Assembly (NCBI GenBank): GCA_964488715.1
Contig: CAZAVD010000001.1
Location: forward strand, 1 to 51,831
DNA: 51,831 nucleotides
Reading direction: 5' to 3'
From: an uncultured Gammaproteobacteria bacterium
GTDB taxonomy: Bacteria > Patescibacteriota > Patescibacteriia > UBA2196
Position numbers and translations under genes: made by a program. The notes under the pieces were generated by a model, which did no database searches, was not told the origin of the DNA, and saw only the letters and a program-made list of their open reading frames with translations. Positions 3,175 to 48,550 of the stretch are shown here, in pieces (positions within the stretch are counted from its first letter, which is position 1; each line of letters starts with the position of its first letter).

Positions 3175-3903
3175 ATGATAGAACAAAAAGTTTTACAAGA
3201 CATGGGATTAAGTGAAATAGAAGCTAAAGTGTATTTGGCTGTTTTGGAGCTGGGCAATGCTAGTGTTTTGGAAATTGCCAAAAAAGCGCAAGTTAAACGC
3301 CCAACTTGCTATTTAAGTCTGGATAATTTATTTAATAAAGGATTTGCAAGTAAAATACAGAAAAAAAGCACTACTCTATATACAGCAGAAAAGCCAAGTA
3401 TTTTATTAAATAAATTTAGAGAAAAAATAAACAACTTTAAAGATTTGTTGCCTTTTTTTGAAGCTAAATTTAATAAAGGTTCAAAGCCTAAAATTAGATA
3501 TTATGAAGGCAAGGAAGAGTTGTGGAATATCTATACAAAAATTTTATTTCCAGCTCAAGAAATATATTTTTTTGGCACTGATGTAGAAAAAATAATGCAA
3601 GTTTTTCCAGATTTATTTGAGTATTGGATTAAGAATTTTATTGAAAAGTATAAAAATTCAAAAGAAATTATTTCACATGACAAAGCTGGTTTGGATTATG
3701 TTAAAAAACATGGCAAACAACGACCAATTAAAATTATGCCTAAAGATTTGCCTGTGTTTGCTGATTCTGTAATTACAGATAATAAATTATTTATTGTTAG
3801 TTTGGATAACTTGTTTGGAGTTTTAATTGAATCAGAAGACCTAGCAAAAACATATAAAAACTTCTTCCTTTTAGCCTGGCGCGCAGCTGAAGAGGTGAAA
3901 TAG
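3175..3903 (+). CDS. TrmB-family transcriptional regulator
   Basis: N-terminal winged HTH: GLSEIEAKVYLAVLELGNASVLEIAKKAQVKRPTCYLSLDNLFNKGF. Length 242 aa. Confidence 0.7.
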   Translation: MIEQKVLQDMGLSEIEAKVYLAVLELGNASVLEIAKKAQVKRPTCYLSLDNLFNKGFASKIQKKSTTLYTAEKPSILLNKFREKINNFKDLLPFFEAKFNKGSKPKIRYYEGKEELWNIYTKILFPAQEIYFFGTDVEKIMQVFPDLFEYWIKNFIEKYKNSKEIISHDKAGLDYVKKHGKQRPIKIMPKDLPVFADSVITDNKLFIVSLDNLFGVLIESEDLAKTYKNFFLLAWRAAEEVK

Positions 3904-12404: not shown

Positions 12405-13931
12405 TTACTCCATCTTGGCCCTATATTGCAATGCCTCTGCAACATGAGGTGTTTTTATGTGATCGTCATTGGCAAGGTCAGCAATAGTGCGAGCGATTTT
12501 TAAGATGCGGTGATAACTTCGTGCTGACAAATGTAATTGTTGAACCGCATTTTTAAGAAGATCTTGAGTTTGAGAATTAATTTTACAAAATTCTCTAATA
12601 TCTTTAGCATTCATTTCTGAATTAGTTGTAATTTTCAAATTTTTAAACCTATTATTCTGTACAGCTCTGGCTTTTTCAACACGGTCGCGAACTTGCGCAG
12701 AACTTTCACCACTAATCTCAGAAGTTAATTTTTCAAATTTAACTCTAGGTACTTCAATATGCAAATCAATGCGATCTAATAATGGACCAGAAATCTTTTT
12801 TTGATATTTTAAAATTTGTCCTGGATGACAAATACATTCTCTATCAGGATCTGAATAATACCCACATGGACATGGATTTTGAGATGCAATTAAAGTAAAA
12901 CTAGCTGGAAAAGTGACAGTGCCTTGAGCGCGTGAAACTGTAACAACGCCGTCTTCTAATGGCTGTCGTAAATTTTCTAAAACTAATCGTGGAAATTCTG
13001 GAAATTCATCTAAAAACAAAATACCTTTATGACCTAAACTTATCTCACCTGGTTTGGGAAAAGTTCCTCCACCAACTAAAGCTACCCCAGAAGATGTGTG
13101 GTGTGGACTACGAAATGGTCGTTCCAAAATTAAGGGTTTATCTTTAGGCAATTTTCCAGCTACTGAATAAATTTTAGTTACTTCTAAAATCTCATCTTGT
13201 GTCATTCTTGGTAAAATTGTAGATACTGCACGAGCAAGCATTGTTTTTCCAGAACCTGGTGGTCCAGAAAAAAGCACATTATGCCCACCACTAGCTGCAA
13301 TTTCTAAAGCTCGTTTGGCATGTTCTTGTCCTTTAACATGCGCCAGATCAACATCAAAATCTAAACTTGGTTTAAATTTTTCAGAATCTTTGTTTATATA
13401 AGCTGGAATTTTCTTCTGTTCTGTTAAGTGCAAATGCAAATCAGTTAATGAATTAACTGGTATAATTTCCAAATTATCAACCAGACTTGCTTCAACAGCA
13501 TTATCAGTTGGTAAATAAATGCGGGATAATTTTTTCTGTTTTGCCATTATAGCAATTGGCAAAATTCCAGTTACTGGTCGCAACTCTCCTTGTAAAGAAA
13601 GCTCGCCCAAATAAAGTGCATTGCGATTTTCTTCTTTTGGATCAATCAAGCCAGCTCTAATCAACAAACTTAATGCAATTGGCAAGTCATAAGCTGGTCC
13701 AGCTTTACGAATATCAGCTGGGGCTAAATTAACTACAATTTTTTTTCGTGGAAAATAAAGATCAGAATTTTTAATTGCTGACCAAACGCGTTCACGAGAT
13801 TCTTGAACTGCTGTGTCTGGTAAGCCAACAATAATAAAAGCGCCGCCTTTACCGCCGCCTAAATCAGATTCAACTTCAACAAGTTGTGAATCTAAACCAA
13901 TTGTTGCTGCAGATAATACTTTTGTATTCAT
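12405..13931 (-). CDS. comM: YifB/ComM family Mg-chelatase-like AAA ATPase
   Basis: 508 aa. Lon-like N-terminal domain, Walker A GPPGSGKT, FLDEFPEF, and C-terminal SARSYHRILKIARTIADL. Confidence 0.9.
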   Translation of the reverse strand: MNTKVLSAATIGLDSQLVEVESDLGGGKGGAFIIVGLPDTAVQESRERVWSAIKNSDLYFPRKKIVVNLAPADIRKAGPAYDLPIALSLLIRAGLIDPKEENRNALYLGELSLQGELRPVTGILPIAIMAKQKKLSRIYLPTDNAVEASLVDNLEIIPVNSLTDLHLHLTEQKKIPAYINKDSEKFKPSLDFDVDLAHVKGQEHAKRALEIAASGGHNVLFSGPPGSGKTMLARAVSTILPRMTQDEILEVTKIYSVAGKLPKDKPLILERPFRSPHHTSSGVALVGGGTFPKPGEISLGHKGILFLDEFPEFPRLVLENLRQPLEDGVVTVSRAQGTVTFPASFTLIASQNPCPCGYYSDPDRECICHPGQILKYQKKISGPLLDRIDLHIEVPRVKFEKLTSEISGESSAQVRDRVEKARAVQNNRFKNLKITTNSEMNAKDIREFCKINSQTQDLLKNAVQQLHLSARSYHRILKIARTIADLANDDHIKTPHVAEALQYRAKME

Positions 13932-15735: not shown

Positions 15736-15810
15736 GCGGGTATCGTATAAAGGCTATTATCCCAGGTTTCCAACCTGTAGATGGGGGTTCGATTCCCCCT
15801 ACCCGCTCCA
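15736..15810 (+). tRNA. tRNA-Gly (anticodon TCC), CCA encoded
   Basis: Acceptor GCGGGTA/TACCCGC. Anticodon loop TTTCCAA. T-arm GGGGG-TTCGATT-CCCCC. The D-stem is weak. Confidence 0.8.
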
Positions 15811-17430
15811 TCGTGAAAAAGCAGTCGCAAAACGGCTGTTTTTTCGTTTTCCTAAAGCATATTCTTTAAATTTCTGTGGTTCCAACATGGCTTTTTTAAT
15901 CTCTTTGTCTTCCACCCCTTTCTTGATTATTAAATAAGCTGGTTCGGGCTCTATTGTTAATATTCCGTCTTTTAACAAAAAGTTCTGACCAAACGCTCTT
16001 AATATTTGAGTTTTGGTTTCAAAATTACCTTTATCAAAACTATGTTTTGCATAGGTGGCAAAATGAAATGTCTTTTCTGACTTCTCTACCCATTCATCGA
16101 CACGCATTTCAATTTCTCTCAAGTCTCCTTCGATCCTTTTCTTTTCCGCCATCAGTATATTTTTTTGCTCTTTGAATTCTTTCTCGTCCATTAAATCTTG
16201 ATTTGTGTTTTCAGGTGAGATATAAAGTTTAATCAAATTATCAATTCTTTTTAAACAGCCATTAAAACTTTCTTGTTGATTTTTAAGTATTTGATTTCTA
16301 TCATTCTCTTCGATTTCATTTTCTTCTCTTAATAATTGTAAGGTAAATTCTAGAAATTCAGGTGGTATGGTTATGCTATCTAACTTTTCCATAACCTGTT
16401 TTTTTAATTCCTCATGACGAATTGTTTTCTGTGTGCAGTTTGTGTTCTTCTTGCGGTGGGTGCAATTATGATAGAGATAGCTACGCAATTCTCCAGTTGA
16501 TTTGATTTTCTTAAACTTTTCCTGTGAGGTAATCATTGCTCCGCATTCGCCACATCTAATAATCCCATTAAAAGGCAATCTTTTATTTTTTGGTCTTGGT
16601 TTACCTTTCTTGCCTAATATCTTTTGTGCAGTATCAAATTCTTGAGCAGTTATCATTGGTTTATGTTTGCCTTGATGTATTTCCCCCTCCCACATAAATT
16701 CTCCATAATAAAAAGGATTGGTAAATATTTTATAACCCACACTTAAGCTTAATTTGTCACTTGGGTGTCGTTTGGTATCAGGTGTTCTTAGTCCCCACTC
16801 ATCATTTGCCATTTCAACAATTTGTTTAACTGAATAATTGTCGGTTAAAAGGTGGTCCCACATTTTTCTTACTAAGCCAAACCTTTCTTGATCAACAAAT
16901 ATTTTCTTTTCTCCTTTCTCTCCCAGCTTGTCATTGGTGTAACCAATAGGAGCTCTGCCAGGTCGCCAACCTTTTTTAACTTTTGAATTAATACCCCTCT
17001 TAACATCTTTACTGAGATCTAAAATAAATTGATTGGCTACTCCCAATTCGACTGCCATCATTAGAACATTATCAGTCGGCAGATACTCTTTAGACGGTGT
17101 GATAATTGATTTAATAATTCCTTGCTGTAAAAGCCACTGAATTTTACCCCCGTCAATTGGGTTTCTTGATAAGCGGTTAATTTTCCAGCAAATAATTCCA
17201 TCTGCTTCGCCTCGTTCTATCATTTTTATCATTTCATCAAACATTGGTCTCCCTGGTTTTTTTGCCGATTTTGATTCACTAAATGTTTTTATTACATTTA
17301 AATTATTTTGATTTATTATTCTCTCATGTTCTTTGTGTTGATCCTCATTAGACTGAATTTGCCGATCTTCGCTATCGGTTGATTTTCTATTATATTCTAG
17401 GTAGCGTAAATTGTTTTGTTCTTTTTTCAT
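15799..17430 (-). CDS. large serine recombinase (integrase)
   Basis: 543 aa. Resolvase catalytic region YNRKSTDSEDRQ, a recombinase domain, a zinc ribbon (CGECGAMITS...YYHC) and a coiled-coil C-terminus. The last codons overlap the tRNA-Gly 3' end. Confidence 0.85.
   Translation of the reverse strand: MKKEQNNLRYLEYNRKSTDSEDRQIQSNEDQHKEHERIINQNNLNVIKTFSESKSAKKPGRPMFDEMIKMIERGEADGIICWKINRLSRNPIDGGKIQWLLQQGIIKSIITPSKEYLPTDNVLMMAVELGVANQFILDLSKDVKRGINSKVKKGWRPGRAPIGYTNDKLGEKGEKKIFVDQERFGLVRKMWDHLLTDNYSVKQIVEMANDEWGLRTPDTKRHPSDKLSLSVGYKIFTNPFYYGEFMWEGEIHQGKHKPMITAQEFDTAQKILGKKGKPRPKNKRLPFNGIIRCGECGAMITSQEKFKKIKSTGELRSYLYHNCTHRKKNTNCTQKTIRHEELKKQVMEKLDSITIPPEFLEFTLQLLREENEIEENDRNQILKNQQESFNGCLKRIDNLIKLYISPENTNQDLMDEKEFKEQKNILMAEKKRIEGDLREIEMRVDEWVEKSEKTFHFATYAKHSFDKGNFETKTQILRAFGQNFLLKDGILTIEPEPAYLIIKKGVEDKEIKKAMLEPQKFKEYALGKRKNSRFATAFSRWSG
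15821..15844 (+). terminator. terminator of the tRNA pair
   Basis: CAGTCG-CAAAA-CGGCTG followed by TTTTTT. It lies inside the 3' tail of the antisense recombinase ORF. Confidence 0.55.
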
Positions 17431-24583: not shown

Positions 24584-25088
24584 ATGGAGAAAACTAAAAG
24601 ACAAATTTTCTACAGCTTTCACTACAAGCCAGATAATTGGAGAGTAGCTCAGGTTAGAAATATAGGTTCTGTTGAGGGTAATAAACCAGCCCCCCGATAA
24701 TGATTGGGAGACTATAACCCAAGAAGGAGATGATGCAATTAGAGATTGGATTAATAAACAAATGAAATATCGTTCGTGTACAGTCGTCCTTGTGGGAGCA
24801 AATACAGCAAACAGAAAGTGGATTAATTATGAAATAAGAAAATCGTGGGAATCAGGAATGGGGGTCGTTGGCATACGCATACACGGCTTAAAGAACAAAG
24901 ATGGTCTTATTGCAAAAAGAGGAAATAATCCATTTGATTATTTATCATTTAAAGATGATAAGAAATTATCAAAGGTCATTAAGTGTTATAACCCGCAAGG
25001 GGAAAACAGTAAAGAAAGGTATGCTTGGATTTCAAATTATTTATCAGCTGCGGTTGAAGAGGCTATAGAAATTAGAAATAATTATTAA
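24584..25088 (+). pseudogene. thsB: ThsB-like TIR (DUF1863) gene interrupted by a +1 frameshift in a C6 run
   Basis: From the ATG at 24584 the frame reads MEKTKRQIFYSFHYKPDNWRVAQVRNIGSVEGNKPAPR and stops at 24698..24700. The next frame continues DNDWETITQEGDDAIRDWINKQMKYRSCTVVLVGANTANRKWINYEIRKSW...GIRIHGL...NPFDYL. The C run is at 24690..24695. Confidence 0.75.
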
Positions 25089-25092
25089 TTAT

Positions 25093-25500
25093 ATGAGTGA
25101 AAAAAAATTAAAACATTTAGAATTTATTCAAGGTGTCATCTCGAGAATGGCTGGCAACCTCTTTTATTTAAGAGGTTGGGTGATTACCCTAATGGCAGGT
25201 ATTCTTGTTTTGCTAACCCAGGTAACTGTTGGGAAATTGCCAGTGATATTTTTAACCATGATAATTTTAATTTTTTGGATATATGATGGTTATTTTCTAT
25301 CCTTAGAAAGAATGCACAGGGACTTATATGATAAGGTAAGAAATTTAGAAGAAGAGAAGATTGATTTTTCAATGTCTGTAAGTGAATTCAAAAAACTTAA
25401 AAAGAACTCCATAATTTTTTGTATCTTCTCGAAGACTCTTCTATTCTTTTATGCTCCTTTATTAATATCAGCTTTATATGTAATTTTCTCTATAAAATAA
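25093..25500 (+). CDS. small 3-TM membrane protein (candidate effector)
   Basis: 135 aa. Helices WVITLMAGILVLLTQV, LPVIFLTMIILIFWIYDGYFL and IIFCIFSKTLLFFYAPLLISALYVIFSI. Separated from the flanking TIR genes by 4-nt and 5-nt gaps. Confidence 0.6.
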   Translation: MSEKKLKHLEFIQGVISRMAGNLFYLRGWVITLMAGILVLLTQVTVGKLPVIFLTMIILIFWIYDGYFLSLERMHRDLYDKVRNLEEEKIDFSMSVSEFKKLKKNSIIFCIFSKTLLFFYAPLLISALYVIFSIK

Positions 25501-25505
25501 ATCAT

Positions 25506-26192
25506 ATGTCTAATCAGAACACATCAAGAAAGATTTTTGTTAGCTATAAACATAGCGATAGTTCGGTTGCTCCATTAGATAGGGCCACCCAGCAATATGA
25601 GATGACTCAAGCCAGGCATTATGTGGCAGAGCTTGAGGAGTTATTGAAAGACGAGAACCATATATACAAAGGCGAAAGAGATAACGAGCCACTAGATCAG
25701 TTTAAAGATGAAACAATCGAATCAAAATTAAAACAGAAAATCTTTGATAGCAGTTTAACTATTGTTTTAATATCCAAAAATATGAAAAATCTATATGAAA
25801 ACGAGAGTGACCAGTGGATTCCTTGGGAGATTTCTTATTCGCTAAAAGAGATGACAAAAAATGGAGTAACCAGTAAAACAAATGCCATGTTGGCTGTTGT
25901 TCTACCAGATGAAAATAACAGCTATACCTACATGGTTAATCACTTACCTTGTGTTATTCGTTGGAATACGGCTGATTTGTTTAGTATTTTGAACAGAAAC
26001 ATGTTTAATCGAAATAATAAAAATACTAAAAGATGTGAACAATGTGGTGGTTATCACCATATAGGCGACGATCATTCTTATGTTCATCCAGTAAAATGGT
26101 ATGACTTTATTAGAGACATGAATTCATATATAGATTATGCTTATAACTTGAATGACAATATTCAGGATTATGATCTCAGAAAATTATGCTAA
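25506..26192 (+). CDS. second TIR-like (DUF1863-type) protein with a Cys/His-rich C-terminus
   Basis: ATG at 25506. Contains KIFVSYKHSD, SSLTIVLISKNM and SDQWIPWEISYSL. The C-terminus has CEQCGGYHH. Confidence 0.6.
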   Translation: MSNQNTSRKIFVSYKHSDSSVAPLDRATQQYEMTQARHYVAELEELLKDENHIYKGERDNEPLDQFKDETIESKLKQKIFDSSLTIVLISKNMKNLYENESDQWIPWEISYSLKEMTKNGVTSKTNAMLAVVLPDENNSYTYMVNHLPCVIRWNTADLFSILNRNMFNRNNKNTKRCEQCGGYHHIGDDHSYVHPVKWYDFIRDMNSYIDYAYNLNDNIQDYDLRKLC

Positions 26193-31445: not shown

Positions 31446-31474
31446 TTGACAACTTTTTAATTATGTGCTATAAT
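31446..31474 (+). promoter_or_regulatory. perfect consensus promoter TTGACA-17-TATAAT
   Basis: TTGACA at 31446..31451 and TATAAT at 31469..31474. The -35 box lies in the right arm of the inverted repeat TTGTCAGGGTT/AACCTTGACAA (31429..31452). Confidence 0.65.
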
Positions 31475-31480
31475 TGAGTA

Positions 31481-31792
31481 TACAAAATAAAGATGTGGAT
31501 ATTTCCTGATCTTTACAATCAAACTTAAAAACAAGAGAGACAGTTTAGTAGGCACTGTGAGTCCTACAATAAGCAATTTTATAGGTTTATTAGCTTTTTT
31601 GCGGGCTTCTCTCTTGATTCACAGAAGGCCGTTTTTGTTTTTTTAAGCAGTAAAGTGGGAGTAAATAATTATTCTCACTTAGATTACTTAAAAAGTTCTT
31701 TACAACATCCTCCTAAATGATTTAAGGTAATTAGTCAGTTTAATAAGCTGTTTGATTACCTTAAATCATGAAAAACATTGATGGAGGATAAA
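31481..31792 (+). ncRNA. structured ~310-nt leader / possible cis-regulatory RNA or sRNA
   Basis: Mutually exclusive pairings: 31532..31540 with 31608..31616, versus the terminator-like hairpin at 31601..31644. A 15-bp helix pairs 31717..31731 with 31755..31769. An anti-SD ATCCTCC at 31707..31713 is complementary to the SD at 31783..31789. Confidence 0.4.
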
Positions 31793-32374
31793 ATGAAAAC
31801 TGTTTTGATGGGACCCCCAAGGTCCGGTAAAAGTTGCATGCGAGAAGGATTAAAGCAGGCAATTAAGAATATCCCAGGAGCGCCGTATCCTTATGTAATC
31901 ACGGCATGTCCTGATGGCGAAGGTGCTTGGTTCCAGGAAGCTGCAAACCGCGATTCGGAAAAAGCCCGCGAATTAAAAACTGATTATAAACAATCAGTCG
32001 GTGGTTTTTCCCCCAAATTTGTTCAGCGGATTGCAGAATCCGTAGCCAACTGCACTTTGCCGATGACTTTGGTGGATATTGGCGGAATTCCATCAAAAGA
32101 AAATGAAGTAATCTGTGCTTCCGCCACTCATGCCATCATTCTGGCTGGTGATATGAGTAAAGTTCCTGAGTGGAGAGAGTTCTGCTTAAAGCTCGGAATT
32201 GAAGTGATAGCAGAAATTCATTCTGACTATCATGGCCAGACAGACGAAGTCCCCACCCTTGGTGAGGATGAAATCTGGAGAGGATCCGTGCATTATCTTG
32301 AGCGCGGTGAACCAGTGGCCGAGCGTCCCACTATAAAAAAGCTTGCAAAGATATTGATTGAAAAATCAAAATAA
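31793..32374 (+). CDS. P-loop NTPase (uncharacterised; partner of Csx3-like gene)
   Basis: The ATG at 31793 lies 5 nt after GGAGG. Walker A is GPPRSGKS, with a Walker-B-like LVDIGG. The region is GC-enriched. Confidence 0.6.
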   Translation: MKTVLMGPPRSGKSCMREGLKQAIKNIPGAPYPYVITACPDGEGAWFQEAANRDSEKARELKTDYKQSVGGFSPKFVQRIAESVANCTLPMTLVDIGGIPSKENEVICASATHAIILAGDMSKVPEWREFCLKLGIEVIAEIHSDYHGQTDEVPTLGEDEIWRGSVHYLERGEPVAERPTIKKLAKILIEKSK

Positions 32375-32453
32375 AAAATGTTTCTGGCCACCTCAGAAAC
32401 AAACCAAAAAAGCTACTGACGGTGGGGTAGCAAAAATTTTTTAGGAGGCTATC

Positions 32454-32759
32454 ATGGCTCATTACAATGTAAATCTCGAAAACGAAAACGTGTTGAAGGT
32501 CGGCTTCGGCGAACCATCGCAAAATGATGAAATCGTTCGTGACGCTGTCAAGCGTTTGGATGAAATGACTGAATCCGGCGAATTGGCTGGTGGCTCTGTT
32601 ATCAAAATTAACGGCCCGGCCTCTCTGCCCGTTGCTGTTGCAATTGCCCATGCGGTCAATCATCTATACGAAACCGTTGCTGTTTTCGATCCAAAGCTGG
32701 GTAAATATGTTGTCGCTGTTTCTCATGGCGCATACAATCCTGGCGACCTGATTGACTAA
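32454..32759 (+). CDS. csx3: Csx3/Crn3-family protein (CRISPR-associated cA4 ring nuclease / deadenylase fold)
   Basis: 101 aa with an AGGAGG Shine-Dalgarno sequence. IKINGPASLPVAVAIAHAVNHLYETVAVFDPKLGKYVVAVSHGAYNPGDLID parallels A. fulgidus Csx3 ISGRGPIWLHCFLAHKYHHTPFVAVYDPRLGAVVVQSHSELREGDVID. The reference sequence is recalled from memory. Confidence 0.7.
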   Translation: MAHYNVNLENENVLKVGFGEPSQNDEIVRDAVKRLDEMTESGELAGGSVIKINGPASLPVAVAIAHAVNHLYETVAVFDPKLGKYVVAVSHGAYNPGDLID

Positions 32760-32787
32760 ATAGTTATCAGGAGAGCAAAACCCGTTT

Positions 32788-32834
32788 GAGGAGTGTCTGA
32801 AAAACAAGTCACTCGTGGCACTCCTCTTATTTTT
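32788..32834 (+). terminator. terminator-like hairpin after csx3
   Basis: GAGGAGTG (32788..32795) pairs with CACTCCTC (32819..32826), followed by TTATTTTT. Confidence 0.5.
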
Positions 32835-32911
32835 CAAAATCTGATTTATGCAAATAAGGTTTTGAAAGATAAAAAATAAAATAGTTCTTTACAATAAAAA
32901 AGAGGTGTATC

Positions 32912-33427
32912 GTGGATATTCTAACCGTAGTTGAAAAGATGGTTGTCGAATGGCAACAAAAGCTCGGTGATTCAGTTGAAGTTATTCTCGGAGGTTCTTT
33001 GGTCTCCGATTTATTTATTTTTGATGAGAAAACAGAACTGATTGATGTTGATGTTCGTTTTCTCACAAATAATCCAGAAGACCCTGAACTTCGTCAAAGG
33101 ATAGAAAAAGTTACAGGTCTCAAATACCGTAAAACCATCACTGTTAATGATTGGCCAACTGGTCAAAGTCTGGGCATTATGGTTGAAGGTCAGATGAGCT
33201 TACCTGAACTACCTTTACCAATGGATATTGAGGGTTGCATTCGCAATCCAAAATACGTTGGCTGGGGTAAATTCTATCGAGACGTTTTAACTGAAAAAGA
33301 GCTGGAAGATTTTCGCCAAAAGAAAATCGCTTTACGCCATGACAAAAAAGCTTATAAACAGATGAAAGCTGAAGTTAGGGCTGAAGTTGAAAAGCGATGT
33401 TTGGAACAAGGAATTGTAAGTAAGTAA
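32912..33427 (+). CDS. minimal nucleotidyltransferase (pol-beta superfamily) candidate
   Basis: GTG start after AAGAGGTG. GGS-x15-DVDV motif (ILGGSLVSDLFIFDEKTELIDVDV), a later acidic MDIEG, and a charged helical C-terminus. Confidence 0.5.
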   Translation: MDILTVVEKMVVEWQQKLGDSVEVILGGSLVSDLFIFDEKTELIDVDVRFLTNNPEDPELRQRIEKVTGLKYRKTITVNDWPTGQSLGIMVEGQMSLPELPLPMDIEGCIRNPKYVGWGKFYRDVLTEKELEDFRQKKIALRHDKKAYKQMKAEVRAEVEKRCLEQGIVSK

Positions 33428-33459
33428 TCTATTAACCTGTAAAACAAGGAGAAAATATC

Positions 33460-35331
33460 GTGAATAATCAGAGAACTGTGAACGGCAAGGCTCTTGGCCT
33501 GGCGTTCTGGAAGAAAGCTGACGAAGTTGTGGGGCTGGTCAAAAAAAGTCGTGGTATTGTGGTAATGCCTACTGGCACTGGCAAAACAACCCAAACACCG
33601 CAATTGTTACACGAACAAGGTTTTACTCGCCAAGGAAAAATTTATATATCTGTTCCCAGAAGAATCTTGGCAGTTGAACTGGCAGCTCGTGTTGCTGATG
33701 AAATGGGAGTAAAACTCGGTGAATTGGTTGGCTATCAGATCCGTGGTGAACGTAAATTGAGTCATCAAACACGAATCATCTTTATGACAGAAGGAACATT
33801 ACGCGGAAAAATTCGCAATAATCCAATGTTAAAAGGTGTCAGCGTGGTCGTATTCGATGAGTTTCATCAACGAACTCTTATGAGTGACTTCAATGTTGCT
33901 CTTATCGAACGAGCTCAGCAAGAAGGTTCGCAGGTAGCGTTTTTGCTCATGTCGGCCACAATTGACCCGACCTATCTTGCCAATCACTTTGATTGCGACG
34001 TGGTTGATGGTTCTGATTTGGATACTACCTATCCAATTACTGAGGAATATATTGATCCTCAGGAAAACGGTGGTTTATTCAAAACAGCAGCCGAGCAGGT
34101 AGAGCGCATGATTTTGGAAGCTGAAGGCAATGGTATGGTTTTTATGCCTGGCAAAGCTGAAATCAACCAGACAATCGATGCAATCCGTGATCTTAATCTG
34201 CCCAAAAATGTAACTGTTCTACCGTTACACGGTGATCTTGATGGCGATGACCGCCATGCTCCATTTGTGGAACGAGATGGTATTACAGTCACGATTGCAA
34301 CGGACATTGTTGAGACTGGTGCCACATTACCAAATATTGGCTGGGAAGTTGATTCTGGACTGGCAAGAGAAAAAGGATATGATCCCGTATCTGATATTTC
34401 TTCCTTGAAAGTTCAGAAAATAGCCAAAGACCGCTTAAAGCAACGTCGTGGCCGAACAGGTAGAGTTCGTGAAGGTCGATATGTTGGATTATTTTCAAAG
34501 GATGACTTTGATTCTCGTCCAGATCGAACCAAGCCCGAAATCTTTCGAACTCCTTTAAGAGAAGTTGTATTAACCATCAAATCACTTGGTCTGTCTCGAG
34601 AAGGAAATTCAATTCGATTGATTGACTATCCGCCAAAAACCAACTGGAAGCAAGCTAAACAACAATTGCAGATGCTGGAGTTTGTTAACAGCGACGATGA
34701 GGCGAACATCAACGAATATGGCAAAAAAGCTGTTGAACTTGGCTGTGATCCTCGTGAGTCTGCTATGTTGCTCAAGTCCGCTCAGTTGGGTTGTTTACGG
34801 GAGATGTCAATTGCTATTGCCGCCCAGCAAAGCCATCGCTTACTGTATTGTCCGAAAAGTGAAGAATATGAGGCCAATATGGCTCATGCGAGATTCCGCA
34901 CTTCGGAAACATGTGATGGATGGACAGCAGTAAAGGTGATTCGGATGGCAGAAGCTCGTGGCGAAGAATCTCTCGGATCCTGGTGTCGAGCAAATTATGT
35001 ATCATACCGCTCGATTCAGGAAATCTGGCAAACTTCACGTCAACTGCTTACAACCATGAAAGGTTTAGGTTTTTCAGTAAATGAGCAGGAAGGCACTGAA
35101 GAAAATTTACGCAAAGCAATTTTTGCCGGATTGCCAGACCGAGTATTCCAATGGGATGGACGGGATTGGTTCAAACGTGATGATGATTCTTGCCTGATGG
35201 GACGAGACTCGGTAATCCGTGAACGATCAAGTGATACACCAGTAGCCGCTTGGGAAGTTATCGAAATTTCTACCAGAAAAGGTGGAACTCTTCGATTGAT
35301 CACCAATGCGGTGACAGTTGAAACAAATTAA
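33460..35331 (+). CDS. DEAH/RHA-family helicase (HrpA/HrpB-like)
   Basis: GTG start after AAGGAG. Motifs PTGTGKTT, DEFH, SAT (LMSATID), FMPG, TDIVETGATLPNI and QRRGRTGR. HA2-like region LEFVNSDDEANINEYGKKAVELGCDPRESAMLLKS. Confidence 0.85.
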   Translation: MNNQRTVNGKALGLAFWKKADEVVGLVKKSRGIVVMPTGTGKTTQTPQLLHEQGFTRQGKIYISVPRRILAVELAARVADEMGVKLGELVGYQIRGERKLSHQTRIIFMTEGTLRGKIRNNPMLKGVSVVVFDEFHQRTLMSDFNVALIERAQQEGSQVAFLLMSATIDPTYLANHFDCDVVDGSDLDTTYPITEEYIDPQENGGLFKTAAEQVERMILEAEGNGMVFMPGKAEINQTIDAIRDLNLPKNVTVLPLHGDLDGDDRHAPFVERDGITVTIATDIVETGATLPNIGWEVDSGLAREKGYDPVSDISSLKVQKIAKDRLKQRRGRTGRVREGRYVGLFSKDDFDSRPDRTKPEIFRTPLREVVLTIKSLGLSREGNSIRLIDYPPKTNWKQAKQQLQMLEFVNSDDEANINEYGKKAVELGCDPRESAMLLKSAQLGCLREMSIAIAAQQSHRLLYCPKSEEYEANMAHARFRTSETCDGWTAVKVIRMAEARGEESLGSWCRANYVSYRSIQEIWQTSRQLLTTMKGLGFSVNEQEGTEENLRKAIFAGLPDRVFQWDGRDWFKRDDDSCLMGRDSVIRERSSDTPVAAWEVIEISTRKGGTLRLITNAVTVETN

Positions 35332-35340
35332 ACCCGATGT

Positions 35341-35381
35341 GCAAGGTTGTTGTTAACACTCCAGCAACCTTGCCTATTTTT
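35341..35381 (+). terminator. rho-independent terminator of the cassette
   Basis: GCAAGGTTG (35341..35349) pairs with CAACCTTGC (35365..35373), followed by CTATTTTT. Confidence 0.7.
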
Positions 35382-35520: not shown

Positions 35521-35708
35521 TAAATAAATGTTTATCATAAATTTAGTTCTGGTATAAAAATTAATCCTGTGTTATTCTTAAAATAAGTTCCAACGTCCTT
35601 CACGATAGAGCTCCAATTATATTTTACTAAAAAAGAATTACGTAATTAATTACATAATTCTTTTTTTGATTGGAAAACAATAGTTGTCAAACTATTTTAC
35701 ATACATAT

Positions 35709-35737
35709 TTGACAAATATTCTTTACATTAGTATAAT
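35709..35737 (+). promoter_or_regulatory. consensus promoter TTGACA-17-TATAAT
   Basis: TTGACA at 35709..35714 and TATAAT at 35732..35737. The inverted repeat TTGTCAAA...TTTGACAA (35685..35716) overlaps the -35 box. Confidence 0.6.
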
Positions 35738-40942: not shown

Positions 40943-41059
40943 TTAAATTTTAATAAATTTTTTAATTAGTTCTTTTTTTAGTCCTCCGGTTGTATAAATT
41001 ATTAATAAATAAATTAATGCTCCTAAAATCACACTAACAATAAGTCCAAAATTTGTCAA
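40943..41059 (-). pseudogene. relic 3' end of the flippase gene (38 codons)
   Basis: Reads (L)TNFGLIVSVILGALIYLLIIYTTGGLKKELIKKFIKI, against the flippase C-terminus TNFGLLISIVLGGFIYFVLIYLFKALKKDLIMSFFK. The 15-nt TCCAAAATTTGTCAA is identical at 41045..41059 and 42527..42541. Confidence 0.7.
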
Positions 41060-41811
41060 ACAACTTCCGCCGTATTCTTTAATCTCTCAATTTCATCTTT
41101 TAAAAACATTAATGCTTCTGGTTTTAATATTTTCCTAATTTGTTGAAACTTTTTAGGATCTAAAAGAAAATTCAAATCTTGATTAATAATATTTTGAGTT
41201 ATTTTGTTTTCTATAAATTTTACCAAATTTTTTAAAAAAGATTTTACTTCTTTTTTTCTGCGTTCAATAATAACTTCTGGGTTATATGTAAATCCTTGTA
41301 AGAAAAAATAGTGGATATCATATAAATCGCGACCTGCAATAGAGCCATTTCTTTCATAGCGCTCAATCAAAGCTACTAATTTATTTGCAAACATTGTTTC
41401 AATAGTTTGACAAGTAATAATTCTATCAATATCATTTAAGCGATAACTTTTATACTCATTTGACTTAGGCACAGGGAAAGTAATATCTATTTTAATAGTA
41501 TTTCTAGTTTTTTCTGAAGAAGGATATTTTAGAAAATATTGAGGAATTTTCTGACTTTGATCTTTAACAACCAATCCTAATTTTTCAAATGTCTTTTCTA
41601 AATTTTGTTTGACTTCTTTTAATTCAGACATATTAGCTACGTAATCAAAATCTAAATCAACAGAAAAACGATCTAAAAAACCAAGCATAGCAGAACATGT
41701 TCCACCTTTAAAATATAAAGCGGAAGATAAAAGCTGATTATCATAAATAGCTGTTAATAAACGGAACAGCCAAGCTTTGTGCATGGCATCTTTTTGGTTT
41801 GGTAAAATCAT
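41056..41811 (-). CDS. abiEii: AbiEii/AbiGii-family nucleotidyltransferase toxin
   Basis: FKGGTCSAMLGFLDRFSVDLDFDY NTase motif. 251 aa. Its start overlaps the stop codon of the upstream antitoxin gene by 4 nt. Confidence 0.8.
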   Translation of the reverse strand: MILPNQKDAMHKAWLFRLLTAIYDNQLLSSALYFKGGTCSAMLGFLDRFSVDLDFDYVANMSELKEVKQNLEKTFEKLGLVVKDQSQKIPQYFLKYPSSEKTRNTIKIDITFPVPKSNEYKSYRLNDIDRIITCQTIETMFANKLVALIERYERNGSIAGRDLYDIHYFFLQGFTYNPEVIIERRKKEVKSFLKNLVKFIENKITQNIINQDLNFLLDPKKFQQIRKILKPEALMFLKDEIERLKNTAEVV

Positions 41812-42386
41812 AAATTTGTACGAGTTAATGGATAGCCAATTGTTTTTTGGATATGTTTAATCTGCTTCCAATCAATTAATTTTGCATTATCAAAATGTGC
41901 CTTTGAATTAAAATATATTAAATCAGCTACAGCCCTTGCTAGAGTAGCAATTTTAATGCCATCTTTATTTTCTATACCAATTGTTTGGTAAAGAAACTTA
42001 TCATTTAATTGGCGTGAATAAAAATTATTATCTCCAATCTTGAATTTTTTTGATTTAGAACTGATTAAAGTAATTTTATCAGTTACTTGATTAATTATTC
42101 CTGCATTAGTTAAAACTGTTTCTGTGCTAATATATGAATACTCATGCAATGCTTTTATTCCCAACAAATATGGATCTAGCTCATTTATTGGTTTTAAAGC
42201 ATAAAAACCTCTATATATTCTATATATAAGGCCTTGTTGCACATATCTTTTAAGAGTTGTATGCAAAGTATTTTTATTCTTAATACTCCACAAATTAGCT
42301 AAATCTTTTGCATGAAACATTATTTCGCTTAATTTAGCCAATTTTGCAAATCTCTGTTGAGTTGTGTTGATTTTTACTGTACTCAT
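41808..42386 (-). CDS. abiEi: AbiEi-family antitoxin
   Basis: N-terminal wHTH, then YISTETVL...IATLARAVADLIY. Length 192 aa. Confidence 0.7.
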   Translation of the reverse strand: MSTVKINTTQQRFAKLAKLSEIMFHAKDLANLWSIKNKNTLHTTLKRYVQQGLIYRIYRGFYALKPINELDPYLLGIKALHEYSYISTETVLTNAGIINQVTDKITLISSKSKKFKIGDNNFYSRQLNDKFLYQTIGIENKDGIKIATLARAVADLIYFNSKAHFDNAKLIDWKQIKHIQKTIGYPLTRTNL

Positions 42387-47694: not shown

Positions 47695-47804
47695 AAAAAC
47701 ATGATCTCTCCCCCCTTTTTTGAAGGGGGAGACTAAGAGGGGGTTAATAAATCCTATTTCATTTTACCATTTTGTCAATGAAAATAAAATTATTTTTCCA
47801 AAGC

Positions 47805-47833
47805 TTGCTTTTTATTTAAAAACATGCTATAAT
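47805..47833 (+). promoter_or_regulatory. candidate promoter TTGCTT-17-TATAAT
   Basis: TTGCTT at 47805..47810 and TATAAT at 47828..47833, upstream of the ATG at 47867. Confidence 0.45.
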
Positions 47834-47866
47834 ATAAATGTAATAAAGTTAATAATATCATTAATT

Positions 47867-48550
47867 ATGCTACATCAAGGTTTAATAGAAAACTTAACTA
47901 AAGAATTAAAAATTGCTCCATTAAGCATTATTCGTGAGAATTTAGAAATAGAGGTTTTAAATGAAATTAGTAAAACCAAATTAACAGATAATTTAATTTT
48001 TTATGGCGGAACTGCTTTGCGCTTAGCTTATAATAGTTTTAGATTTTCAGAAGATCTTGATTTTTTATTAACAAAAAGTTTAAAATCAGACAAAAAAGAA
48101 CTTGAAATTTCGTTAAACAAAGTAGTAGAAAATAATCAAGGTGTAATTTTAGAAGAAGTAATTGAAAAAAGAAATACTCTTTTTGGGTTATTAAAAATAA
48201 ATCATTCTTTATTAAAGCATTCAATTAGAATTAAAATTGAGATTTGCAAAAAGAAAAACGGGGTTAAAAAAGAAAACAAATTATTAATTTCACCAACTAC
48301 AAATTTAGAAGTTATTTTCCCAACTGCTGATTTAGAATCACTTTATAAAACTAAACTTGAAGCCTTAAAAAAACGCGACTTGGCTCGTGATTGGTTTGAT
48401 TTATGGTATTTAAATCAAAAATTAGACAAGAAACAAAAACCAAATAAAAAATTTGATTTTAATAAACAAGAATTTGCCAGAGAGTTGAAGAGATTTTTAC
48501 CGCAAGACAAATGGTCTATTATTCAAACTGTGAACAAGTTTTATGAATAA
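47867..48550 (+). CDS. abiEii: AbiEii-like nucleotidyltransferase toxin (second copy)
   Basis: ATG at 47867. FYGGTALRLAYNSFRFSEDLDFLL NTase motif. RDWFDLWYL. Confidence 0.7.
   Translation: MLHQGLIENLTKELKIAPLSIIRENLEIEVLNEISKTKLTDNLIFYGGTALRLAYNSFRFSEDLDFLLTKSLKSDKKELEISLNKVVENNQGVILEEVIEKRNTLFGLLKINHSLLKHSIRIKIEICKKKNGVKKENKLLISPTTNLEVIFPTADLESLYKTKLEALKKRDLARDWFDLWYLNQKLDKKQKPNKKFDFNKQEFARELKRFLPQDKWSIIQTVNKFYE

Follow-up and report, generated by a model that had tools for sequence, protein, structure and literature searches.

Csx3, or Crn3, is an accessory protein of type III CRISPR systems that has so far been understood solely as an off-switch for the cyclic tetra-adenylate (cA4) made by Cas10; its dissociation constant for cA4, which it hydrolyses, is below 100 nM (PMC7371418). 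Fusions of Csx3 with a P-loop domain, in either orientation (Csx3-AAA and AAA-Csx3), have been recorded beside type III CRISPR loci (PMC6546367), examples being clusters 35 and 67 of Shah et al. 2018, Synechocystis Slr7080 and the 'Csx3-prime' of Athukoralage 2020. Since 2018 the P-loop domain of these proteins has been described as of unknown function (PMC12409355; PMC9676260), and in an eLife paper it was termed a 'kinase/transferase domain' (PMC7371418). Here, we report a four-gene operon in which homologues of the two halves of this fusion are encoded separately, next to a nucleotidyltransferase and an RNA helicase and with no CRISPR in the sequence examined. The operon lies in a contig of 51,831 nucleotides (CAZAVD010000001.1, assembly GCA_964488715.1, positions 1 to 51,831) from an uncultured bacterium with a GTDB lineage in the Patescibacteriota; this whole stretch is referred to as the window. 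Judged by their sequences, the first two genes are a split and apparently CRISPR-independent version of the Csx3-AAA type III accessory protein, and they belong to a mainly patescibacterial family of more than 1000 clusters, for which no CRISPR was found nearby at the loci examined. This raises the question of what makes or uses adenylate signals in CRISPR-poor bacteria, and the two further genes provide the P-loop domain with concrete partners.

Gene 1 (31793..32374, + strand) encodes a P-loop NTPase of 193 amino acids (aa) and corresponds to the 'AAA' half of Csx3-AAA. Its product aligns with positions 109-285 of the 286 in the PADLOC Csx3-AAA model PDLC01045, the C-terminal half (E = 4.9e-57), and is thus the domain that is fused to Csx3 in Csx3-AAA proteins; an initial annotation, made from the sequence alone, had pointed out that Csx3 is often fused to an AAA/P-loop domain and that a P-loop protein is its neighbour here. 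The protein carries a Walker A motif (GPPRSGKS), an invariant DGEG and a DIGG (DxxG) motif. Pfam returned AAA_PrkA alone, and weakly, and the family profile found no relative among PDB sequences. According to the AlphaFold2 (AF2) model (mean predicted local distance difference test score, pLDDT, 87) the 'AAA' label is a misnomer: the best Foldseek matches were the GPN-loop GTPase Npa3, Get3, the signal recognition particle proteins Ffh/FtsY, MinD/ParA, CTP synthetase and nucleotide kinases, no AAA+ protein was present among the top 50, and an AAA+ fold was therefore rejected in favour of a predicted SIMIBI/kinase-GTPase-like fold. Clustering at 90% identity divides the large P-loop family into more than 1015 clusters, and its members are 65-75% identical across lineages. 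Several stand-alone members (P0038, P0039, P0042 and others) are annotated by JGI/IMG as 'CRISPR-associated protein Csx3', yet have no Csx3 domain, a mislabelling that probably stems from models built on the fusion protein.

Gene 2 (32454..32759, + strand) encodes a 101-aa Csx3/Crn3 homologue belonging to a distinct subfamily of the Candidate Phyla Radiation (CPR). It passes the gathering threshold of Pfam PF09620 marginally (21.7 bits against 21), stays below the equivalog cut-off of NCBIfam TIGR02579 (22.2 bits against 55.4), and matches the PADLOC Csx3 models with E values of 4.2e-26, against the N-terminal half of Csx3-AAA, and 7e-16. The resemblance to AfCsx3 (AF1864; PDB 3WZI, 6YUD) that had been noted in the initial annotation was recovered at E = 0.005 in a single-sequence phmmer search and at 4.4e-8 with a family profile of 24 relatives, for which AfCsx3 was the sole match in PDB; the similarity is genuine. 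Five AfCsx3 residues experimentally shown to be important, H57, H60, D69, R71 and H80 (PMC7371418), correspond to H66, H70, D79, K81 and H91, the pairing of H70 with H60 having been placed by profile alignment. These positions are kept in 99-100% of 73 CPR homologues, the lysine being a conservative substitute for R71, and the CPR protein is probably catalytically active. The segment of AfCsx3 that contacts cA4, S44-G45-R46 and I49, aligns with K-I-N...A in gene 2. From its HxxxH and D-P-K motifs and an N-G-P-A-S-L-P loop, this is a Csx3 subfamily of its own, set apart from AfCsx3 by the R71 to K change, the absence of S44 and R46, the score below the equivalog level and a genomic context free of CRISPR.

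Gene 3 (32912..33427, + strand) encodes a 171-aa minimal nucleotidyltransferase (NTase) with a Pol-beta fold, here designated NT171. No match was found for it in Pfam, NCBIfam, PADLOC or PHROGs, Pfam being negative up to an E value of 1 with PF01909 and PF08843 included, and its profile found no relative among PDB sequences. The fold and the invariant residues identify it: G28 and S29, D45-x-D47 (here D45-V-D47) and E92 are invariant, and the AF2 model (pLDDT 95.8) retrieved solely Pol-beta NTases in Foldseek (prob 1.0, query TM-score (TMq) 0.35-0.42), among them Pol mu/lambda, the tRNA A-adding enzyme, Cid1, RelP and cGAS, with cGAS at rank 47 (TMq 0.27); the H. pylori putative NTase 4ok0 was matched as well. 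The earlier assignment to the Pol-beta NTases thus holds, and NT171 is a new, apparently undescribed family of this fold. The family is small, comprising 34 clusters and 47 representatives among 1.84e9 proteins. Among the viral structures of BFVD the best match to NT171 was an uncharacterised Tupanvirus ORFan (TMq 0.60), which is uninformative as to function, and NT171-like domains may also exist in giant viruses. One NT171-containing protein of 1677 aa (P0287) carries DUF5754. A 244-aa protein in locus L109, considered as a divergent NT171, was rejected (hhalign prob 0.1), and a search with hidden Markov models (HMMs) revealed it to be a second P-loop paralogue.

Gene 4 (33460..35331, + strand) encodes a 623-aa minimal DEAH/RHA (HrpA/HrpB-like) RNA helicase. 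The motifs PTGTGKT, DEFH, SAT and QRRGRTGR can be read from its translation and are followed by an HA2 ratchet; Pfam PF00270, PF00271 and HA2_C all match, and the best PDB matches were HrpA (8po6, 1.1e-73 over HrpA residues 83-636) and the spliceosomal Prp43/Prp22, as expected of the DEAH/RHA core recognised previously. An identity as an HrpA or HrpB equivalog was rejected: the protein scored 307 (E = 2.5e-91) against a cut-off of 722.75 for TIGR01967 and 288.6 against 546.15 for TIGR01970, and its 623 aa compare with about 1300 and 810. The subfamily counts about 48 clusters, after which identity drops sharply to that of HrpB at 31-35%. PADLOC gave weak Cas3 and HamB matches with E values of 5e-6 or weaker. 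A helicase 49% identical to it occurs in one locus (L108:7001-8896) by itself, flanked by rnhB and nusB-rnc and away from any P-loop or csx3 gene, a hint that a housekeeping RNA helicase may be the origin, or a second role, of the subfamily.

The four genes are co-directional and constitute a single, horizontally acquired operon. In gene order, they are preceded by the Shine-Dalgarno (SD) motifs GGAGG, AGGAGG, AAGAGGTG and AAGGAG and start with ATG, ATG, GTG and GTG, the gap between genes 1 and 2 being 79 nt; coordinates, motifs and codons are all as given in the initial annotation. That the block differs in composition from its surroundings had been noted there from hand counts, and was confirmed: the GC content is 0.43 in the cassette and 0.29 in the flanks, with values of 0.41-0.44 over 32-35 kb and 0.22-0.36 in the rest of the window. 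At a resolution of 100 nt, the rise begins at the start codon of gene 1 and ends at the stop codon of the helicase gene, while the intergenic spacers and the leader are AT-rich and host-like. Arginine is encoded by CGN codons in 58 of 71 cases (82%) in the cassette and in 90 of 187 (48%) in ten flanking genes (Fisher p = 6.5e-7). An assembly chimera, which the initial annotation had held out as a possible explanation, is very unlikely, because the identical cassette and the identical junctions, hsdR-YgjP on one side and HTH-SocA on the other, are present in separate JGI, ENA and Logan assemblies.

An HMM-based census of 100 related loci (L011-L110, some of them redundant) revealed how these genes are combined. 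The P-loop gene and csx3 occurred by themselves in 69 of the 100 loci, with NT171 in 8 and with the helicase in 7, and all four genes were present in 9. In 80 metagenomic loci seeded on the P-loop protein, and in further loci seeded on NT171 and the helicase, csx3 is found next to the P-loop gene in essentially every locus with room for it, in varying gene order. The P-loop and Csx3 pair is accordingly the constant core, and NT171 and the helicase are its optional partners; considering also the small size of the NT171 and helicase families, the four-gene cassette is an uncommon extension of a widespread two-gene unit. The earlier view of the four genes as a set stands in so far as they do co-occur elsewhere, and falls in so far as the set is not the basic unit. 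About 10 loci (L026, L059, L064 and others) have a bpMoxR-type AAA+ ATPase and a von Willebrand factor A (VWA) protein after the P-loop gene and csx3, in place of NT171 and the helicase, and several of these hold a second P-loop paralogue of 28-34% identity. Named hosts are mostly Patescibacteria, including Saccharibacteria, Paceibacterota, Magasanikbacteria and Taylorbacteria, and in most hosts the GC content of the cassette exceeds that of the flanks (0.56 against 0.35 in L017, for example), which points to repeated horizontal transfer. A neighbour that seemed to recur in 51 loci ("cluster 1") was rejected as an antisense open reading frame (ORF) artefact of the GC-rich csx3 gene. Downstream of the cassette, some loci contain an extra csx3 copy or fragment and a PF01909 NTase fragment (L013:10692-10832, 12623-12817 and L022:5850-6149), and in L019 NT171 is broken by a frameshift; these suggest decay and turnover of modules.

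The optional partners are nevertheless tied to the core by gene fusions and by replacement. The P-loop domain is fused to NT171 in 7 representatives, and one polypeptide (P0278) has the order P-loop-NT171-Csx3-Csx3. Csx3 and the P-loop domain, separate genes in the window, share a polypeptide in L015 and P0278. Fusions of NT171 and the helicase, of 786 aa, are found in L018/P0174 and in P0169, and the two genes overlap in L011, L015, L017 and L110, so that the helicase is translationally coupled or fused to NT171 at these loci. In L027, L046 and L049, where the P-loop gene and csx3 are accompanied by a helicase gene of 41% identity, the NTase is a canonical PF01909 minimal nucleotidyltransferase (MNT) instead of NT171. 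This is a non-orthologous displacement, the MNT being an analogue of NT171 and not a member of its family, and it appears that an NTase activity is being selected.

NT171 is not confined to these cassettes. The domain is embedded in giant proteins of 1262-3958 aa together with MuF_C, ddrB-ParB, SNF2, Zeta-toxin/AAA_33 kinase and inorganic pyrophosphatase (InPase) domains, and these giant proteins match DarB-like and minor-head polyvalent PHROGs. Such 'polyvalent proteins' of phages and conjugative elements have been proposed to be injected as anti-defence factors, and their InPase domain to remove the pyrophosphate released by NTases or to act on nucleotides connected with conflict (Iyer et al. 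2017, PMC5512222). The NT171 domain within them has no Pfam model, and no description of it was found; in the window the same domain is a stand-alone gene of a cellular operon. Further fusions of NT171 involve HicA (P0281) and a cytidylyltransferase-like domain. An unannotated nucleotidyltransferase domain is thus common to cellular cassettes and phage polyvalent proteins, and its pairing with P-loop domains of the kinase type is seen repeatedly, among cellular and phage proteins alike.

The absence of CRISPR-Cas, already remarked on in the initial annotation, extends beyond the immediate surroundings. No CRISPR array or cas gene was found in the 51.8-kb window (arrays by Tandem Repeats Finder), a k-mer scan that took repeat spacing into account detected no CRISPR-like array in the 1.13 Mb of about 100 related loci, and Cas10 was not among the PADLOC matches listed for the 76 large ORF clusters neighbouring the genes at these loci. 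In PADLOC-DB v2, the Csx3 and Csx3-AAA models were the ones to match and no described system was matched by all components. We found no paper that links Csx3 to Patescibacteria or to a DEAH helicase with a nucleotidyltransferase, in keeping with the earlier statement that no system with this gene set had been described. Compared with the Csx3-AAA proteins, which comprise the same two homologous domains with no function assigned to the P-loop in either setting, the cassette has the domains as separate genes in either order, has no adjacent cas genes or arrays, occurs mainly in Patescibacteria and is linked to an NTase and a helicase. The parallel to cyclic oligoadenylate (cOA) signalling of type III CRISPR, to cyclic-oligonucleotide-based anti-phage signalling systems (CBASS) and to OAS-RNase L is conceptual, these systems having an NTase triggered by nucleic acid, a sensor or eraser of oligoadenylates and an output protein. 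Relative to them, the cassette has no Cas10, no match to the cGAS/DncV-like nucleotidyltransferases (CD-NTases), no SAVED or CARF effector and no recognisable toxic domain. NT171 does have the Pol-beta fold of the superfamily that includes OAS and cGAS/CD-NTases. To our knowledge, a DEAH/RHA helicase is used by no described cOA system.

The reading we tentatively favour, somewhat short of calling it probable, is that the block is a Cas10-independent, adenylate-centred conflict module of the defence type. Gene identities, conserved catalytic residues, recurrence, fusions, foreign composition and the lack of CRISPR in the sequence examined are observed; from them we infer what the substrates are, which way information flows and that the role is one of defence. 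The helicase-NT171 pair would engage RNA through single-stranded 3' ends and convert ATP into adenylate products, either short oligoadenylates or 3' tails, and would thereby fill the supply role that Cas10 has in type III CRISPR. Csx3 could then act as a Mn-dependent reader and eraser that binds and hydrolyses the adenylates, and the P-loop NTPase as a nucleotide-dependent switch or kinase coupling the adenylate state to an output. As a signal generator, the helicase-NTase pair would open a new way into immunity based on cyclic or linear oligoadenylates, whereas as an RNA-tailing machine it would be the bacterial counterpart of surveillance by TRAMP. A wider proposal is unlikely when taken as a whole: Patescibacteria would possess a Cas10-independent adenylate immunity in which the DEAH helicase-NT171 pair senses foreign RNA and makes the signal, Csx3 and the P-loop protein read and erase it, and phages have captured NT171, kinase and pyrophosphatase into injected polyvalent proteins.

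Several observations weigh against an adenylate-based defence module. NT171 did not match the PADLOC CD-NTase models and, with only 171 aa, is about half the size of the two-lobed CD-NTases (about 300 aa or more), having no second lobe of the kind that positions the acceptor in CD-NTases and OAS. The PF01909 MNTs that replace it in some loci are protein- or RNA-nucleotidylating enzymes, as in HEPN-MNT systems, and not oligoadenylate synthases. About 70% of the P-loop and Csx3 loci have neither an NTase nor a helicase nearby, and NT171 can therefore not be the general source of the Csx3 ligand. That ligand may itself differ from cA4, since the contact residues S44 and R46 of AfCsx3 are not kept in CPR Csx3, which has the invariant N-G-P-A-S-L-P loop there instead. 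No toxic effector is recognisable in the cassette, and the very high conservation of the P-loop protein across lineages is unusual for a defence gene. The negative result for Cas10 covers the best 25 PADLOC families listed for the neighbours at these loci.

The strongest rival is a module for RNA 3'-end surveillance or repair, TRAMP-like or of the end-healing type, that clears or repairs RNAs damaged in conflict such as toxin-cut tRNAs; we regard it as rather unlikely. In such a module NT171 would add 3' tails, the helicase would load on the tail and unwind, the P-loop protein would phosphorylate polynucleotides or nucleotides, and Csx3 would serve as Mn-dependent 3' deadenylase or phosphodiesterase. 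DEAH/RHA helicases are 3'-to-5' RNA translocases, with HrpA and Prp43/Prp22 as the best PDB matches here, and the NT171-helicase fusion and gene overlaps mirror the pairing of Trf4 with Mtr4, which is a feature of TRAMP. The related helicase among rnhB-nusB-rnc in L108 and the tRNA A-adding enzyme and Cid1 terminal uridylyltransferase among the Foldseek matches of NT171 point in the same direction. The repeated association of NT171 with Zeta/AAA_33 kinases and InPase in polyvalent proteins recalls T4 Pnk/Rnl, with which phage T4 counters defence by RNA repair. The first activity described for AfCsx3 was that of a Mn-dependent deadenylating exoribonuclease (Yan 2015), and the name 'kinase/transferase domain' has been given to the fused P-loop (PMC7371418). 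The affinity of AfCsx3 for A-tailed RNA is, however, about 100-fold weaker than for cA4, and the deadenylase activity is regarded as minor (PMC7371418). Pnk and Clp1 resemble the predicted P-loop fold less than SIMIBI GTPases and small-molecule kinases do, and most core pairs are without NTase and helicase. TRAMP (Trf4/5 and Mtr4) and the RNA-repair operons (Pnkp/Hen1, T4 Pnk/Rnl) likewise combine a Pol-beta NTase, an SF2 RNA helicase, a 3'-end nuclease and a P-loop kinase-like protein, by analogy only; the helicase of the cassette is of the DEAH/RHA and not the Ski2-like type, and exosome, ligase, phosphatase and Hen1 are all missing from it.

It is distinctly unlikely that the block is counter-defence cargo of a mobile element, in which Csx3 would destroy host cA4 as AcrIII-1 does and the other three proteins would subvert nucleotide signalling or RNA. 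Csx3 is a ring nuclease, the composition of the cassette is foreign, and a few loci do lie in mobile surroundings: the L015 cassette is situated inside a P4-like element beside P4 cII and an AEP primase-helicase, and that of L011/L012 in a phage-like run of small ORFs with P22_AR_N. The presence of NT171 in the giant polyvalent proteins with DarB-like and minor-head PHROGs (PMC5512222) could also be taken in this sense. Against it, alignments of NT171 and the P-loop protein found no relative in IMG/VR, tblastn found no NT171 in GenBank phages or PLSDB, and the P-loop, Csx3 and NT171 proteins had no match in PHROGs. Most loci are chromosomal: in about 23 of them (L018, L024, L025, L109, L110 and others) a divergent TrmB-family helix-turn-helix (HTH) regulator lies upstream of the P-loop gene and csx3, often with a gene for a methyltransferase of 700-830 aa or a GNAT protein alongside, which suggests a recurrent chromosomal hotspot with a dedicated regulator. 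No integrase flanks the cassette in the window, and no terminal direct or inverted repeats bracket it, short chance-like matches being all that was found. The hosts, moreover, are Patescibacteria, which reportedly are mostly without CRISPR.

A toxin-antitoxin (TA) or abortive-infection module, with NT171 nucleotidylating a protein or a tRNA 3' end in the manner of MntA, MenT or AbiEii and with Csx3 and the P-loop protein reversing or controlling this, is a very doubtful explanation. The substitution of PF01909 MNTs for NT171 in three loci, the NT171-HicA toxin domain fusion (P0281), the Foldseek match to H. pylori 4ok0 and a window rich in TA genes, with AbiEii/AbiEi and SocA among them, are compatible with it, and Pol-beta NTases have been classed as protein-modifying domains (PMC5512222). 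The cassette contains no cognate toxin partner, HEPN or other, the AbiEii and NTP_transf_2 models do not match the NT171 sequence, and the link to a DEAH helicase and to Csx3 would be left without explanation. Most improbable of all is a displaced type III accessory pair that serves a distant Cas10 in trans, with NT171 and the helicase as unrelated neighbours: Csx3 and Csx3-AAA are indeed established type III accessory genes and the sequence examined of this genome amounts to 52 kb, but neither an array in the 1.13 Mb around the related loci nor Cas10 among the PADLOC matches listed was encountered, fusions bind NT171 and the helicase to the core, and the family is concentrated in Patescibacteria.

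The operon is bracketed by the signals noted in the initial annotation. A sigma-70-type promoter, TTGACA-17-TATAAT, matches the consensus at 12/12 positions and has an extended-10 TG (31446..31474, + strand), and an intrinsic terminator (35336..35378, + strand) combines a U-run with a preceding hairpin whose core stem measures 12 bp (dG -19.1 kcal/mol, z = -4.84). Between the promoter and gene 1 lies an AT-rich, structured 5' leader of 318 nt (31475..31792, + strand; GC 0.25-0.34, host-like) with a minimum free energy of -92.9 kcal/mol (z = -7.07) and a 26-nt inverted repeat at 31717-31769. In a hairpin at its 3' end, CCUCC (about 31709-31713) is paired with the SD motif GGAGG of gene 1, and the leader segment CCUCCUAAAUGAUUU is complementary also to the SD region of gene 2 (32434-32448); the pairing with SD motifs may provide translational control. 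The leader matched no Rfam family, and its conservation is limited to near-identical contigs.

The setting of the cassette is that of a defence island, as had been proposed. On one side it is flanked by a type I restriction-modification (R-M) operon with ThsB-TIR genes and by a YgjP-like gene, and on the other by an HTH-SocA/Panacea gene. The PADLOC neighbours at the other loci (76 large ORF clusters) include MADS, PbeA, type IV restriction, PARIS AriA and DRT. In the R-M operon of the window, hsdM is separated from a second hsdS by two ThsB-like TIR genes plus a small ORF (24672-26192); no ThsA was visible in the window. The HTH_3-SocA/Panacea gene is driven by a second perfect TTGACA-17-TATAAT promoter (35709-35737), upstream of which a near-perfect palindrome of 19+19 nt (35629-35666) looks like an operator. 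Genes of TA and abortive-infection systems abound in the window, among them AbiEii-family nucleotidyltransferase toxin genes at 41056-42386 and 47720-48550, one of which is paired with an AbiEi-like gene. A full-length match to the LOOT RNA (RF03000; 21091-21215, + strand; 79 bits against a gathering threshold of 46.4) is intergenic within the stretch of defence genes. The window's own TrmB gene (3175-3903) is 28 kb away from the cassette. A large serine recombinase gene (15799-17430, - strand; Resolvase, Recombinase and Zn_ribbon_recom domains) overlaps the 3' end of a tRNA-Gly gene (15736-15810) just after tRNA-Pro. The arrangement resembles the boundary of an island that has integrated; the rest of the window has no att-like repeat of the tRNA-Pro/Gly region with a length of at least 13 nt. 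Near tRNA-Arg, at 646-807, a 78-nt unit is present as a perfect tandem duplication (2.1 copies, 100% identity).

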